Both the position numbers and the translations under genes were made by a program. DNA of 34,069 nt from positions 1 to 34,069 of IMG/VR virus record IMGVR_UViG_3300042391_000141; one strand, 5' to 3'. This document shows, piece by piece, positions 15,293-26,889 of this stretch. The notes beneath the pieces were generated by a model. That model did no database searches. It saw only the letters and a program-made list of their open reading frames with translations, and was not told where the DNA came from. Position 1 is the first letter of the stretch. The number at the start of each line of letters is the position of its first letter. This stretch comes from a virus. Taxonomy: Duplodnaviria; Caudoviricetes.

Positions 15293-15307
15293 TTTTATTT
15301 ATTTAAC

Positions 15308-15334
15308 TGTTAATAACTTGTACAAATATAAACA
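15308..15334 (-). promoter_or_regulatory. TATATTTG promoter module, near-identical to 23639-23665
   Basis: TGTTTATATTTGTACAAGTTATTAACA, containing the -7 consensus. Confidence 0.6.
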
Positions 15335-17633: not shown

Positions 17634-18542
17634 TCAAAATGGTAAATTATCAAATGAATTATTTGGTGCTATTGCTTTTGTACTTGGCGAAGTTAATCTT
17701 TTTATCACATCTTTACCTCTAACTTTAAAACCCAAACCAAAATTGTAGTCCATCATCATTGGCTCGTTTAATAGCGTTGGTTTTCCGCCAGTATCTGTAT
17801 CTTTAATCTTTACAACTTCAACCATTGTGTAGTTCCATAAATCTGGATGTTGTGTTAATCTGTGAACTACTAAAAAATCGTCTGCTTTATTTGCGAATGC
17901 TTTACCGCCTTCAATGTCTGACTTTAATGGTGGCATAACGTGTCCATTCCAACCGTGCTTTTCTGGATATACTGCCGAGCGTCTTCCACTCGCTGAACTT
18001 GGGTGTGCGTTTATGTAGATTGTTTTACCATTCTTTGTAAAGTGCTTTAAATCGTTTAATACATCGTAGTTTGAACTATAAGACATTGGAGTTTTTAAAC
18101 CATTGAACGGGTCGATTAAATGTACATCGCATTCTGCTTTATCGAATATGTTTAATAATTCGTCTGGAGTGTATCGTTTAGTATTATCTACAAACTTAAA
18201 CGAATTTTCTAAAATTGTTTCGTATCTTCTAACTTCGTTGTATGTTAAATCCATAAACTTTTTACCAGAATACATCTGTATTAAGTCACGCATTACTTTA
18301 CCCTGATAGTTTTCATCCATAAACAAACAAAACTTTAAATTGTGGTTTGTTGCAAGTGCTAAAAAATACCATTCTAAAAAATATGTTTTACCTACGTTAT
18401 CGTGTCCTAAAATTATATTTAATTGTCCTTGCTTATGAACGAAGAAATCGTCTAAGTCACAACCTAATTTTAATCCAGTTGGTATCTTACCATCTAAATA
18501 GTCGTTTAAGTATTGAGTACTATGTCCGTTGTTTAATATCAT
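17634..18542 (-). CDS. Replicative helicase, DnaB/SF4-like (302 aa)
   Basis: Walker A GHDNVGKT, Walker B LIDP, AHP and GG..FANKAD motifs. Confidence 0.88.
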   Translation of the reverse strand: MILNNGHSTQYLNDYLDGKIPTGLKLGCDLDDFFVHKQGQLNIILGHDNVGKTYFLEWYFLALATNHNLKFCLFMDENYQGKVMRDLIQMYSGKKFMDLTYNEVRRYETILENSFKFVDNTKRYTPDELLNIFDKAECDVHLIDPFNGLKTPMSYSSNYDVLNDLKHFTKNGKTIYINAHPSSASGRRSAVYPEKHGWNGHVMPPLKSDIEGGKAFANKADDFLVVHRLTQHPDLWNYTMVEVVKIKDTDTGGKPTLLNEPMMMDYNFGLGFKVRGKDVIKRLTSPSTKAIAPNNSFDNLPF

Positions 18543-19321
18543 TAAAATAGTTTTTGTTGGATGCGTGAAAGTACTTTTTCATTCGCTAATTTATAGAAAT
18601 CTTTTTTAATCTCAAATCCAAATGATTTTCTATTAGTTTGTGATGCTGCTAATAAAGTACTACCAGAACCTGCACAAGGATCAATTACTACATCTCCTTT
18701 ATCTGTAAAAATTTCTATTAAATGTTCCAATAATTTAACTGGTTTTTGTGTTGGATGCACCTTTTCAGTATCTGTATCTCTTATCCAATCAAAACAATTA
18801 AAAATCATTTTACCATTGTTATTAAATTTTGGTAGTTTATCTCTATAAAGTAATACAGCATATTCACAATTACCAACTACTTTCATATTAGCTTTTAATA
18901 CTTGAGCTGAAAAGTTTTTTCTAAATACTAAATTAATACTTTTTACTAAACCGTATTTTTTAGCCTTTTCTATAAGTTCAAATTGTTGTTCAAATGCACA
19001 AAAAACAATCATACAAGGTGCTGCGCTTTTTTCTTTTGGTTCTGGTCTTAACATTGTAGAACAAAAATGTAAAAATTCGCTAATTCTAAAATCTTTATCT
19101 GTATCAAAAAATTCTTTATTAGCTAACTTACTTTCTCCATTCTTATTATCTCCATCAATATACCAAGCTGGATTCGATGCATAAGCATTATTACCTAAGT
19201 TGTAAGGAATATCTGCAATGATTAATTGTGCTTTAGGAATATTATAACGCTTATAATTTTGAAAATGGTCGTTATAAAGTTCTGGCTTGTAAAATTTATT
19301 TACTTCGTTATTTGTTTTCAT
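18542..19321 (-). CDS. Orphan DNA methyltransferase, N6/N4 beta class (259 aa)
   Basis: Catalytic IADIPY, HPTQKP, and SAM-binding DPCAGSGS motifs. Confidence 0.92.
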   Translation of the reverse strand: MKTNNEVNKFYKPELYNDHFQNYKRYNIPKAQLIIADIPYNLGNNAYASNPAWYIDGDNKNGESKLANKEFFDTDKDFRISEFLHFCSTMLRPEPKEKSAAPCMIVFCAFEQQFELIEKAKKYGLVKSINLVFRKNFSAQVLKANMKVVGNCEYAVLLYRDKLPKFNNNGKMIFNCFDWIRDTDTEKVHPTQKPVKLLEHLIEIFTDKGDVVIDPCAGSGSTLLAASQTNRKSFGFEIKKDFYKLANEKVLSRIQQKLF

Positions 19322-21677: not shown

Positions 21678-22376
21678 TTAATTTACTCGTTTATAAATTG
21701 ATTCTTTTTTATTTAATTTTCTGTAAAAAGTTGCTCTTGAAATACCATAATAAGTATATGCTTTTTTTATACTTGAAAATATTTCTCCAGTTTCAGTATT
21801 AAGAAGTTTAATTGACCATTTAACTTTACCTTTTGCAGAAATTGACATTTTCTTTTTGGTTTCTTCTGAGTGCTTTGTATTTAATTTTGATTTAGATAAT
21901 TTAATTTTAACGCTTTCAGGTGTTTTTAATCCTTTATTCCAAGAAGTTTTTCCTTTTAATGATTTAGACATTTTATCTTTTGTTTCATCGCTAAGTTTTT
22001 TATTTTTATTTGGATTTACATATCCATTTAAATAAAGTTTTTTTTGCGCATTGCTAAGATATTTTTTTTGTTCATCAGTAAAAACATAAGACTTTAAACC
22101 TTCTCCGCCATCTGTTAAATTAGCTAGTGTTCCTTTTTTTAAATTTATCCGTCCATATTTATTTATTAATTTAATTTCTAATTCCCTTGCTTCTTCTATT
22201 GTAATATTATCGTGTACTATATTTACAATATAATTTGTTTTGCTAGTAATTTTTTTCCAAATATCATTTTTACGATATTTCCAATAAGCTCTTTTATAAG
22301 AATTATTTTGTTTTGATATTCCTATATAAAATACTTCGCCATTATCTTCTCTAGTATGAGTATAAACGTATGCCAT
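21678..22376 (-). CDS. Free-standing GIY-YIG homing endonuclease with NUMOD3-like repeats (232 aa)
   Basis: YVY...FYIG, NLTDGGEG, repeated (H/L)S.ETK.KMS and a C-terminal HTH; very AT-rich. Confidence 0.9.
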   Translation of the reverse strand: MAYVYTHTREDNGEVFYIGISKQNNSYKRAYWKYRKNDIWKKITSKTNYIVNIVHDNITIEEARELEIKLINKYGRINLKKGTLANLTDGGEGLKSYVFTDEQKKYLSNAQKKLYLNGYVNPNKNKKLSDETKDKMSKSLKGKTSWNKGLKTPESVKIKLSKSKLNTKHSEETKKKMSISAKGKVKWSIKLLNTETGEIFSSIKKAYTYYGISRATFYRKLNKKESIYKRVN

Positions 22377-22394
22377 ATTTTTTTATATTTATAT

Positions 22395-22402
22395 CAAATA
22401 TA
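22395..22402 (-). promoter_or_regulatory. -7 element TATATTTG upstream of the homing endonuclease
   Basis: Consensus -7 box in an intergenic region; no clear -33 element. Confidence 0.5.
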
Positions 22403-22435
22403 GTAAAATAATATTGCTTGTACTAATTAAAGTTC

Positions 22436-23622: not shown

Positions 23623-23638
23623 TTTCTTAGTTTTAAAT

Positions 23639-23665
23639 TGTTAATAACTGATACAAATATAAACA
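23639..23665 (-). promoter_or_regulatory. TATATTTG promoter module upstream of erf
   Basis: TGTTTATATTTGTATCAGTTATTAACA; 25/27 identical to 15308-15334. Confidence 0.65.
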
Positions 23666-24055
23666 TTATTCTTTAATAGATAACTTTTTTATCAAATTAT
23701 TTTTAATCTGCCAAAAGTCTTGTAATGAATTAGCTTCTAATATATCCAATTCTGCTTCTGTTAGCTGTAATTTTTCTTCATCTGGTATATTAATGCAAGA
23801 AACTTCTAACTCGTTTTCTACTAACTCAATTAATTCTTTGAAGTCTGGATAGTTTTTGTTTCTATCGTAACATTCAAGACCGTGTAAAATTGTAGCGTGT
23901 CCTTTGCCGAACATTTTACCGATTCTATCTAACGTCATTCTGTTGCTACGTAGAAAATGATATAATACACTTCTAATATAAACCTTTTCACGTTTGCGAG
24001 ATGGTGTGTTTAACTCGTATCTTTCTATTAATTCTGTAATTTTTATTAAATTCAT
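23666..24055 (-). CDS. DNA-binding protein with DnaA domain IV-like HTH (129 aa)
   Basis: SRKRE.V..R...TL.RIG..FGK.HATILHG resembles the DnaA C-terminal signature. Confidence 0.75.
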   Translation of the reverse strand: MNLIKITELIERYELNTPSRKREKVYIRSVLYHFLRSNRMTLDRIGKMFGKGHATILHGLECYDRNKNYPDFKELIELVENELEVSCINIPDEEKLQLTEAELDILEANSLQDFWQIKNNLIKKLSIKE

Positions 24056-24974: not shown

Positions 24975-25005
24975 TAACAACAAACTTGCGTCAATATCGG
25001 TGTTA
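24975..25005 (+). other. Short degenerate TAACA...TGTTA site at the left edge of the cassette array
   Basis: TAACA-ACAAACTTG-CGT-CAATATCGG-TGTTA; its GTT begins cassette 1. Confidence 0.45.
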
Positions 25006-25817
25006 CCAGCAATGCCAGAACCGACACCGCTAAAATAAACGAAGTTGTGATTTAAAGTCATTAAAACGCTTTTCTTGTTTCTCATAATATTCTTGGTCTA
25101 TTTCAAATCCTACAAAGTTGAACCCGCCTTTATACGCTGCAATCCTACTGCTTCCACTTCCTAAATGAGTGTCAAGTATCGTTGCCCCAATTTCAGCATA
25201 GTTTTGTAAAAGCCAATCGTATAAAGCAACTGGTTTTTGTGTTGGGTGTATTTTATCCTCTGCACTTGTTTTGCCTTGTAGGTTTCCGTAATATCTAAAA
25301 TCAAATTGTTTTGCCACCTTATTAAATGAAGTCCACGCCAATTCCCCATCCGCAAAGTTTGGAACTGGGTTTCCTTTATGCCAATAAATAAAGCCTTTGC
25401 ATCCGTTTTGCCATAAATAAGGAAAGTAATTGCCACCCCACACAATTTGATTTTTAGATACTCTCATTAGTTCGGCAAAATATTCATCGCTTGGAATATC
25501 ATCATCCCAGTTGCTATTTTTGTATTTGTTGGCTTTATACCTTTCTCCGTTACTTGCTTTATTGGTTCGGTTAAATTCTCCAAATCCAATCCCATAAGGC
25601 GGGTCAACTATTGCCAAATCAAAATGGTTATCTGCATAGCGTTTTAATGCCTTTACACAATCTTCCAAATAAACCTCCGAAGAAGGCACTGCTGGTAACA
25701 CGTGCTTTGCAAAAGCGGGGGTTTCCGTTTTCAAAGGAACATTATCGTTAAATATATCATTCATCTTTCTAATTAAATTTAGTGGTTAAATGCCCCGCCT
25801 TCGCAAAGCACCATACG
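25003..25817 (+). mobile_element. Gene cassette 1: methyltransferase plus attC-like site
   Basis: GTTACCAGCAATGCC (25002-25016) is the 14/15 inverse of GGCACTGCTGGTAAC (25685-25699), which is followed by the palindromic site. Confidence 0.75.
25030..25764 (-). CDS. Orphan DNA methyltransferase, N6/N4 beta class (244 aa)
   Basis: IVDPPYG, IHPTQKP and LDTHLGSGS motifs. Confidence 0.95.
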   Translation of the reverse strand: MNDIFNDNVPLKTETPAFAKHVLPAVPSSEVYLEDCVKALKRYADNHFDLAIVDPPYGIGFGEFNRTNKASNGERYKANKYKNSNWDDDIPSDEYFAELMRVSKNQIVWGGNYFPYLWQNGCKGFIYWHKGNPVPNFADGELAWTSFNKVAKQFDFRYYGNLQGKTSAEDKIHPTQKPVALYDWLLQNYAEIGATILDTHLGSGSSRIAAYKGGFNFVGFEIDQEYYEKQEKRFNDFKSQLRLF

Positions 25818-25823
25818 TTATAA
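25693..25823 (+). repeat. attC-like imperfect palindrome 1 (131 bp)
   Basis: TAAC-AC-GTGCTTTGCAAAAGCGGGG ... CCCCGCCTTCGCAAAGCAC-CATAC-GTTA. Confidence 0.8.
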
Positions 25824-26221
25824 GCAACCTTACGAAACCGTGCTAAGGTCAAAATTGGTTGACTTAATTTTAAAACAATTTCGCCAAAATCCAGTAACCA
25901 AATCTATTTTGGTGTGGTCTTTAACTCTATCATTTTTGTTTATTTCTTCTTTGATATTTTCAGAATCACATACTTGAACATCGGCAATGCCACCAAAAAA
26001 GAAAATGTATTTATCTCCAATTTCTATTGGTTCTGTATTTTCGTAACATTCAAAGTCAAATTCTTCTTCGTGTCCTTCGATTTTTGTTTTAAAATTTCTC
26101 ATTTTGTTTTTAATTTAAGTTAATAAAGGCTGCTTATAACAGCGTATATAAGAAATGGCACAGAAACCTTTGTGCTTAATCTTAACATTCTGCAAGTGCC
26201 ACTTCTCATATACGCAAAACG
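25818..26221 (+). mobile_element. Gene cassette 2: 90-aa ORF plus attC-like site
   Basis: GTTATAAGCAACC (25817-25829) is the 12/13 inverse of GGCTGCTTATAAC (26128-26140). Confidence 0.75.
25830..26102 (-). CDS. Hypothetical cassette-borne protein (90 aa)
   Basis: A-rich start region; its stop codon abuts the cassette boundary. Confidence 0.75.
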   Translation of the reverse strand: MRNFKTKIEGHEEEFDFECYENTEPIEIGDKYIFFFGGIADVQVCDSENIKEEINKNDRVKDHTKIDLVTGFWRNCFKIKSTNFDLSTVS

Positions 26222-26227
26222 TTATAA
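26134..26227 (+). repeat. attC-like imperfect palindrome 2 (94 bp)
   Basis: TAAC-A-GCGTATATAAGAAATGGCAC ... GTGCCACTTCTCATATACGC-AAAAC-GTTA. Confidence 0.8.
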
Positions 26228-26380
26228 TTCCCATTCTTCTACTTCTCCGCTTCCTTCGCATTCAGGACACTCAATCACTTCTGTACATCCACCGCAACAA
26301 TTCCAAGCTGGTTGGTCGCAATCAGTAGATACTTCAATTCTGCCTTTACCATCGCATTGTTTACATTCTACTTCAATCAT
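26222..26380 (-). CDS. Small DnaJ-type zinc-finger protein (52 aa)
   Basis: Read by hand: MIEVECKQCDGKG...CCGGC...CPECEGSG; ATGA-coupled to the upstream gene. Confidence 0.8.
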   Translation of the reverse strand: MIEVECKQCDGKGRIEVSTDCDQPAWNCCGGCTEVIECPECEGSGEVEEWEL

Positions 26381-26794: not shown

Positions 26795-26824
26795 CAAATA
26801 TAGTAATAATGTTTATAAGTGCAA
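26795..26824 (-). promoter_or_regulatory. Major early promoter TTG-N19-TATATTTG
   Basis: Full Bacteroidota -33/-7 consensus at the head of the early operon. Confidence 0.8.
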
Positions 26825-26889
26825 TACTTTTTAACAATTATTTTTAAATTATTTTTAGTTTCTCAATGTTTACAATACTTTCAGAGCAT

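Follow-up and report, generated by a model that had tools for sequence, protein, structure and literature searches.

A two-cassette, integron-like array with inverted genes in a tailed phage, and the XerA-like recombinase family that likely serves such arrays in trans

The array described here lies in the genome of a tailed phage (Duplodnaviria; Caudoviricetes) represented by IMG/VR record IMGVR_UViG_3300042391_000141, all 34,069 nucleotides of which make up the window of this analysis. The contig is complete (100%) and circular at 33.9 kb, with a 127-nt repeat at its ends, and the minus strand carries all genes, including every ORF of the early operon. The host probably belongs to the Flavobacteriaceae, since the best match of the terminase is to Nonlabens phages (56%) and the window DNA is present in lake metagenomes. 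As originally predicted, the phage encodes no recognisable tyrosine recombinase: a PHROGs scan found none among the 55 ORFs of the window, and a search of the whole circular record with PF00589 gave nothing at E<=1. Genes for an Erf-like protein and an exonuclease lie 1.4-2.6 kb from the array, adjoined by a gene resembling NUMOD3 homing endonucleases (21678-22376, minus strand). A second N6/N4 DNA methyltransferase gene (18542-19321, minus strand; PF01555 E 3e-26) has no hairpin site around it. Related AT-rich motifs recur in intergenic gaps (15304-15334, 22375-22405, 23636-23670 and 26795-26839), several of which include, on the minus strand, an element resembling TATATTTG; these are likely early promoters or operators.

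Features of the array are collected in Table 1, and the predicted cassette sizes of 815 and 404 bp proved correct. The product of the cassette A gene matches PF01555 (E 1.5e-14), phrog_67 (E 5.7e-44) and PADLOC MTase_II (E 1.1e-38). The reading frame opens in the site A loop, where the start codon lies, and its first residues come from the hairpin arm and core; site A is in this sense dual-coding, its return arm and core (25682-25764) specifying residues 1-28. The 90-aa product of cassette B had no match in PHROG, Pfam, NCBIfam, PADLOC or Atlas, and hence no family or fold lead in these collections. For the promoter candidate we used a -33/-7 consensus, which we take to be that of Bacteroidota.

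Table 1. Array features in the window and the basis of each assignment
Feature	Position	Strand	Basis or remark
Site 0	24975..25005	+	Fixed array anchor; GTTA core 25002-25005 at its end; no significant hairpin
Cassette A	25003..25817	+	815 bp; border inside GTT core; exact absence in L296 and in metagenome run joints
Cassette A outer arm beside site 0	25006..25016	+	10/11 complementary to 25685-25695
Inner partner of cassette A outer arm	25685..25695	+	Pairs with 25006-25016
Orphan N6/N4 DNA methyltransferase, 244 aa	25030..25764	-	Pfam, PHROGs and PADLOC matches
Site A, attC-like hairpin	25696..25820	-	Best fold on minus (gene-sense) strand; travels with methyltransferase
Cassette B	25818..26221	+	404 bp; no cassette A beside it in L093 and L296; its place taken by other cassettes in L099/L101 and L087
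90-aa protein, cassette B gene	25830..26102	-	ORF; 10 viral relatives
Cassette B outer arm	26128..26136	+	Pairs with 25821-25829; both ends change together in L392
Site B, attC-like hairpin	26137..26224	-	Folding; homologous site at the head of another gene in a phage record of 635 kb
52-aa cysteine-rich flanking ORF	26222..26380	-	TAA stop codon supplies outermost core
Candidate early promoter	26795..26824	-	Bacteroidota -33/-7 pattern match only; would read through both cassette genes

The two imperfect palindromes that prompted the original prediction do share one architecture, consisting of TAAC (at 25696 and 26137), a spacer of 2 nt in site A and 1 nt in site B, an arm of 19 bp (25702-25720 with 25793-25811) or 20 bp (26142-26161 with 26196-26215), a 5-nt spacer and GTTA. 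GTTA cores stand at 25002, 25817 and 26221, the boxes of the window read TGGTAAC, TTATAAC, GTTACCA and GTTATAA, and a relaxed scan of the whole window returned sites A and B as its sole hairpin sites. Two mismatches in each arm and one in each outer flank pairing make up six, all of them A/C on the plus strand, as had been noted. Classical extrahelical bases are absent from both sites, again in agreement with the initial reading. The 11 nt to the left of each TAAC are matched by the flank of the previous GTTA at 10 of 11 positions in both sites, compared with only 4/11 (A) and 6/11 (B) for the flank of the same site. From these complementarities, the pairing of 25006-25016 with 25685-25695 would form only in a circular or looped molecule.

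Preferential folding of one strand was also predicted, and in both sites the minus strand folds lower than the plus strand, whether treated as DNA (-20.0 vs -17.9 kcal/mol for site A, -19.3 vs -14.8 kcal/mol for site B) or as RNA (z -5.3 vs -3.7 and -7.4 vs -5.8, with 0/200 shuffles as good). When the minus strand is folded in the form it would have in a circle, z improves over the linear form from -3.2 to -5.9 in site A and from -5.3 to -8.4 in site B (100 shuffles). Because the minus strand is also the coding strand, folding in the window cannot by itself tell a role in DNA from a role in RNA. The hairpins might thus be mainly elements of the early transcript, serving as RNase III sites, terminators or translation controls, a reading with which the location of the methyltransferase start codon in the site A loop and the identity of the better-folding strand with the mRNA strand would agree. 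A terminator scan returned five sites against 1.0 expected, four of which are short sub-stems in or beside the hairpins; the main stems themselves run into GTTA and lack a U run. Against this reading, Rfam searches of the window and 20 site-rich loci gave no match at gathering thresholds, the E-value matches being generic hairpins, and RNA structure leaves precise DNA breakpoints unexplained.

Such breakpoints were found in related phages. Apart from the absence of 25003-25817, L296 is identical to the window over 1639 nt (0 mismatches), and its join shares only the 4-nt GTTA. Among 27 loci found through the neighbouring 71-aa gene, the array follows the 52-aa gene in five and the platform is absent in 22. 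Five distinct arrangements occur at the locus: the window, cassette B alone (L093), a different single cassette with the same site 0 after it (L099, L100 and L101), two other cassettes (L087), and L296; every break is at the core, so that cassettes are exchanged next to one fixed anchor. Lake metagenomes contain comparable variants. An 815-nt skip identical to the L296 join appears in three of the seven runs compared (X2, X3 and X6), a different insert of ~0.76 kb lies between 25005 and 25799 in four of them (X1, X2, X3 and X5), the methyltransferase form is present in X1, which may be the sample of origin, and a joint in X7 represents the form without the platform. The short side of these joints measures just 26-30 nt, the seven runs may share one campaign, and contig depth is not equivalent to frequency; RNA runs, which contained under a tenth of the window's words, were left out of the comparison. 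Exact loss, metagenome joins and replacement at the core together largely support the prediction that the two units, of 815 and 404 bp, are mobile cassettes, and the presence/absence breakpoints among related phages fall, as anticipated, in the 4-nt core. The predicted crossover is upheld as to its location, inside the AAC/GTT core; the breakpoints do not single out G/TT, and the G/TT cut itself is something we infer. Cassette circles, also expected from the prediction, were not seen among the metagenome joints listed, nor was a zero-cassette anchor, contigs being prone to drop rare forms. All five records checked for a zero-cassette allele contain cassettes, and neither the junction of cassette A with site 0 nor, in metagenome contigs, the flank was matched in exact searches.

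Some of these observations would also fit a process driven by homology, in which the sites are linkers for exchange by the Erf-like annealing protein and exonuclease, or relics that lose cassettes by hairpin-promoted slippage. Both genes are close by, the end of site A and the ~0.76-kb replacement allele have at least 19 nt in common, short junctions that lack hairpins mark the variation of other early genes and of the platform borders, and circles are missing from the joints listed. This explanation is nonetheless improbable in view of the overlap of just 4 nt in the L296 deletion, of dozens of junctions that fall in the same core between unrelated flanks, and of conserved wobbles between the two ends of a cassette, which have no role in annealing. 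The platform is a separate matter: its borders in the 22 of 27 relatives that lack it, and in the X7 joint, lie away from GTT cores, and its arrival stands outside the cassette explanation. An extra gene separates the 71-aa and 52-aa ORFs (window 26377-26380) in 12 of the 27 relatives (L083, L086, L087, L090, L092, L099-L104 and L106), joined at short conserved stop/start motifs where a hairpin is absent; genes of the early operon are thus swapped in a second way as well, without sites. One cassette of L087 (5545-5871) has a 52-aa ORF in its hairpin loop, and ~100 nt between its ends hold no clear gene.

The same cassettes occur elsewhere in quite different company. In 80 methyltransferase loci of phages, the right end of the cassette was kept in 48, with 47 different neighbours, and the left end in 46, in 45 different contexts (three rows of the left-end comparison are anchored on an earlier TAAC). 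Because similarity drops at TAAC on both sides of the methyltransferase cassette, each hairpin travels, in line with the original assignment, with the gene downstream of it on the coding strand. Nine viral relatives listed for the cassette B gene include four with intact site-and-end borders, one of them with both ends changed (L392), one with a worn end only, and four from large phages that have no site; cassette B is found in other contexts in L389, L391 and L392. Site-free homologs of the 90-aa gene in phages of 140-460 kb (L393-L396 and L386) are a possible source of cassette genes. In the cultured Flavobacterium phage hemulen6-1, the methyltransferase cassette (78% identity) lies beside an anchor, in an array of nine sites and four methyltransferases where a recombinase is absent; in L002 it belongs to an array that ends at a 275-aa recombinase. 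Polaribacter phage Freya_1 lacks a block of Freya_10, both ends of which are at YAAC cores next to a phage recombinase. The base before AAC follows the upstream cassette, which puts the Freya_1 crossover within AAC. Ten Freya isolates (L380 and L382-L385) differ by up to 4.9 kb just upstream of an annotated integrase gene, and the one pair compared in full differs at cassette cores; the product so annotated may recombine cassettes instead of marking a lysogenic phage.

Further sites were collected with a strand-neutral pairing detector, used in place of a covariance model, which found 159 sites in 772 kb of phage loci and, in 40 loci, 60 sites compared with 2 in shuffled sequence; it selects for pairing in the first 12-14 bp, and such pairing is not independent evidence. 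The sites have a median length of 126 nt and a 5-by-1/2 internal loop. Among 119 distinct sites, the long spacer comes first on the coding strand in 112, and G:T pairs exceed A:C pairs by 177 to 53. A G-T pair occupies position 15 from GTTA in 87% of 112 sites, the corresponding share at position 12 being 44%; position 6 runs against this polarity, being A:C on the folded strand in 46%. Single-base bulges are absent from the first 16 nt of the arm in 92/108 sites, extending to the family what was predicted of extrahelical bases in the window, and the gene-sense strand folds lower in 91/108, the other strand in 15/108. A best end match of 7/8 was obtained with the downstream end in 69/110 sites and with the upstream control in 1/110. 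Where the two ends of one cassette were compared, as pairs picked for best match with the upstream-end control run separately, positions 1-5 are paired and a T-G wobble occupies position 7 in 82/90; the 5-mers after GTTA comprise 44 distinct sequences among 90 matched cassettes. Some 5500 stretches of the genome collection match one site motif, chance matches included. The sites are members of a large family in Bacteroidota and their phages.

Orientation differs between the cassettes of phages and most of those of bacteria. The prediction that the ORFs are inverted relative to classical cassettes is borne out in phage loci, where 89 cassettes have the gene on the folding strand against 2 with it on the other, whereas in bacterial loci the other, classical strand carries the gene by 28 to 12. 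The wobbles of chromosomal arrays are found on the antisense strand, so that the polarity belongs to the site whatever the direction of transcription. The reversal weighs most heavily against a role chiefly in RNA, which we consider very improbable, although a secondary RNA role of the hairpins may exist beside that of the cassettes. At the cassette borders, then, breaks are bound to cores, homologous sites stand by different genes, and action solely as RNA terminators is contradicted.

Two components were overlooked in the earlier reading, the anchor at 24975-25005 and a XerA-like recombinase linked to such arrays. Site 0 stays constant while the adjoining cassette varies (L099/L101 and L296), shows no tendency to fold (z 0.17), and begins, as do other anchors, with a base other than G, the first base of 124 of 127 hairpin sites. 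It lies 68 nt before the start codon of the next gene, the place of which is taken by a recombinase gene in related arrays; phage arrays that have this recombinase gene end at an anchor mostly 36-57 nt before its start codon. In hosts, an anchor of the form YAAC, four bases and a TATA-like box, often within a palindrome, follows the recombinase stop by 27-135 nt (16 distinct cases, 49 loci). Terminal array sites exceed background as a class on the phage-type anchor profile (p 3.6e-7), on which site 0 itself is weak (rank 69 of 469), and an attI-like pattern occurs in 17/61 Flavobacterium genomes, with no excess over a reversed control. Site 0 is likely an attI-like anchor or receptor; alternatively, it may be a worn attC.

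Homologs of the recombinase were found in 76/101 Flavobacteriaceae genomes and in 37/61 Flavobacterium genomes, and 20 loci were chosen per set, with long contigs favoured. Sites lie downstream of the recombinase in 14/20 Flavobacteriaceae loci (38 vs 1 by orientation; A:C 63 and G:T 0 on the gene strand), and control DNA contained 1 site in 100 kb. In 12/20 Flavobacterium loci sites are downstream in one orientation, with A:C 49 vs G:T 29, and in 3/20 they are upstream in the opposite orientation; the anticipated clustering of sites near a tyrosine recombinase is thus apparent in both sets. These loci with upstream sites (L401, L404 and L413) have the divergent layout of classical integrons. 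Many host recombinase genes end within a few hundred bases of the edge of their contig, which is what assemblies broken by repetitive arrays would show. One Flavobacterium chromosome (G001) has an array of 27 or more sites in classical orientation, ~52 kb from a frameshifted host-type recombinase (L235 11296-12350); a loose site pattern tried in G001 gave a count below its control. Among viruses, a single host recombinase query found no relatives, whereas an alignment query did. About 1100 viral stretches match the family patterns, and from the best 80 a second filter recovered 61 recombinase ORFs, leaving out some of the 21 recovered by a first filter. Of the phage recombinase loci with 2.5 kb upstream, 24/34 have at least two inverted-type sites there, and the orientation count is 124 vs 0.

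Host and phage enzymes alike are closest to XerA (NF040815 at or near cut-off; PDB 4A8E). They fall under the TIGR02249 cut-off of 265 bits (192-203 for host, 146-154 for phage enzymes), and lack the IntI insertion, 42 residues spanning what takes 90 in IntI4, with which the alignment breaks into two pieces. TIGR02249 at E<=1e-40 matched 0/101 Flavobacteriaceae genomes in a search whose positive control was silent too. Phage-type enzymes are short (~267 aa), and host enzymes have about 100 extra N-terminal residues. In a tree of 51 sequences (22 chromosomal, 26 random phage and 3 others, with L002 and Freya_1 absent), most sampled phage recombinases form a clade of their own (support 0.998); the tree has no IntI or XerC/D outgroup, and its deep branches are poorly supported. 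Since tyrosine recombinases of any kind occur in only 3 of 38 phage records, a sample that includes array-less relatives, most such phage arrays are integrase-less. The likely enzyme for the window is a XerA-like recombinase without the IntI insertion, acting in trans.

The prediction had called upon a host integron-like integrase in trans. The host does seem the likelier source, albeit by a rough apportionment in which we lean moderately toward it, hold a co-infecting phage to be possible, and consider it rather unlikely that neither supplies it; the enzyme, on the other hand, is XerA-like and not IntI, and other phages carry it too. The second of these sources, a co-infecting phage or prophage with a short phage-type recombinase, for which inverted cassettes would be a phage-only pool, is a tentative alternative. 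It draws on the frequency with which phage recombinases have inverted arrays upstream, their separate clade, the nearly fixed inversion in phage loci, the occurrence of the methyltransferase cassette beside a recombinase in L002, and the signal of terminal sites on the phage anchor profile. It is weakened by the rarity of tyrosine recombinases in phage records and in near-complete viral contigs (1/26), by the weak standing of site 0 on the phage-type profile, and by the close resemblance of hairpin sites in hosts and phages.

We therefore favor, as quite probable, a two-cassette array that exchanges its units at AAC/GTT cores on a folded minus strand, through a XerA-like recombinase acting in trans and coming most likely from the Flavobacteriaceae host. 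By analogy with integrons, each site would fold when phage replication exposes single-stranded DNA, giving a core duplex, then a 5-by-1/2 internal loop and a 19-20-bp stem; the part played by extrahelical bases would fall to the conserved G-T wobbles, which would mark the active strand. Recombination between two cores would release a circle, in which the two ends of the cassette would form an outer arm of 9-11 bp that favors re-insertion, and the attI-like anchor would be the entry point of new cassettes. Genes inverted relative to chromosomal cassettes would be read from the phage early promoter. The payoff would be a changeable set of orphan methyltransferases against host restriction, from which the cassette methyltransferase, judged by its family, would protect. 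A broader reading, in which a second, non-IntI class of integron is common to Bacteroidota and their phages, the XerA-like enzyme reads the G-T wobbles of the folded strand, and integrase-less phages use the host enzyme to swap inverted methyltransferase cassettes as a counter-defence library, seems to us evenly balanced.

Integrons, which IntI defines, have become familiar chiefly as platforms on which bacteria carry resistance and defence genes. The present array works like an integron cassette array and yet fails several defining tests of the classical kind. With classical integrons, above all sedentary chromosomal ones, its family shares the AAC/GTT core, hairpin sites with one favored strand, complementary cassette ends in the circle form, at other loci a receptor beside a tyrosine recombinase, and long arrays of variable genes. 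It differs from them in a recombinase that lacks the IntI insertion and scores under the TIGR02249 cut-off, in the absence of the RYYYAAC / GTTRRRY consensus, in an internal loop and fixed G-T wobbles that replace extrahelical bases, in an outer arm of 8-11 bp, in a chromosomal recombinase mostly upstream of the array and co-oriented with it, and in phage ORFs that are inverted, on the folding strand. Archaeal XerA and the XerC/D-dif systems supply the best sequence matches of the recombinase. Their dif sites are short and double-stranded, unlike the 70-160-nt hairpins that flank single genes here, and the ~100 extra N-terminal residues of the host enzymes are a further difference. Rfam Flavo-1 (RF01705) is similar as a structured Bacteroidota repeat found on either transcript strand, as far as the part of PMC9723704 covered describes it; our sites fall below its 42-bit gathering score, with zero matches at E<=10, the controls of one search being silent.

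Phage arrays of this kind have been encountered before. In the portion of the text covered, Qi et al. 2023 (PMC9892861) describe phage CALINs, including that of Polaribacter phage P12002L, as ordinary attC sites in "divergent directions"; like ours, the latter is an integrase-less array with methyltransferases in a Flavobacteriaceae phage. In the same portion, P12002L attC1 is the only one of six sites that IntI1 did not recombine, whereas attC2 was recombined, and neither an inverted family nor a separate recombinase is mentioned there. On re-reading the genome, we find that attC1 has the hairpin family layout on the gene-sense strand and that attC2 is the terminal array site. Nilsson et al. 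2020 (PMC7077304) tie plating efficiency to one such methyltransferase gene, again in the part covered, and "integron" and "cassette" are absent from what was covered of the main texts of that paper and of Bartlau et al. 2021 (PMC8776804). A literature search, largely of open-access papers, found no description of an inverted, non-IntI cassette system. The distinct Bacteroidota/phage system that was predicted is thus substantiated by the site family and by its linkage to the recombinase, and the data point to a parallel cassette system in Bacteroidota and phages, with a different enzyme and a different site code. If so, the variation of methyltransferase sets among flavobacterial phages would have an explanation, such phages could quickly change their protection against host restriction enzymes, and a new question would arise, namely by what means a Xer-like enzyme that lacks the IntI insertion acts on folded single strands to recombine them. 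Direct testing is possible because cultured phage-host pairs exist, and the window and L296 provide a natural plus/minus pair whose difference is exactly one cassette.
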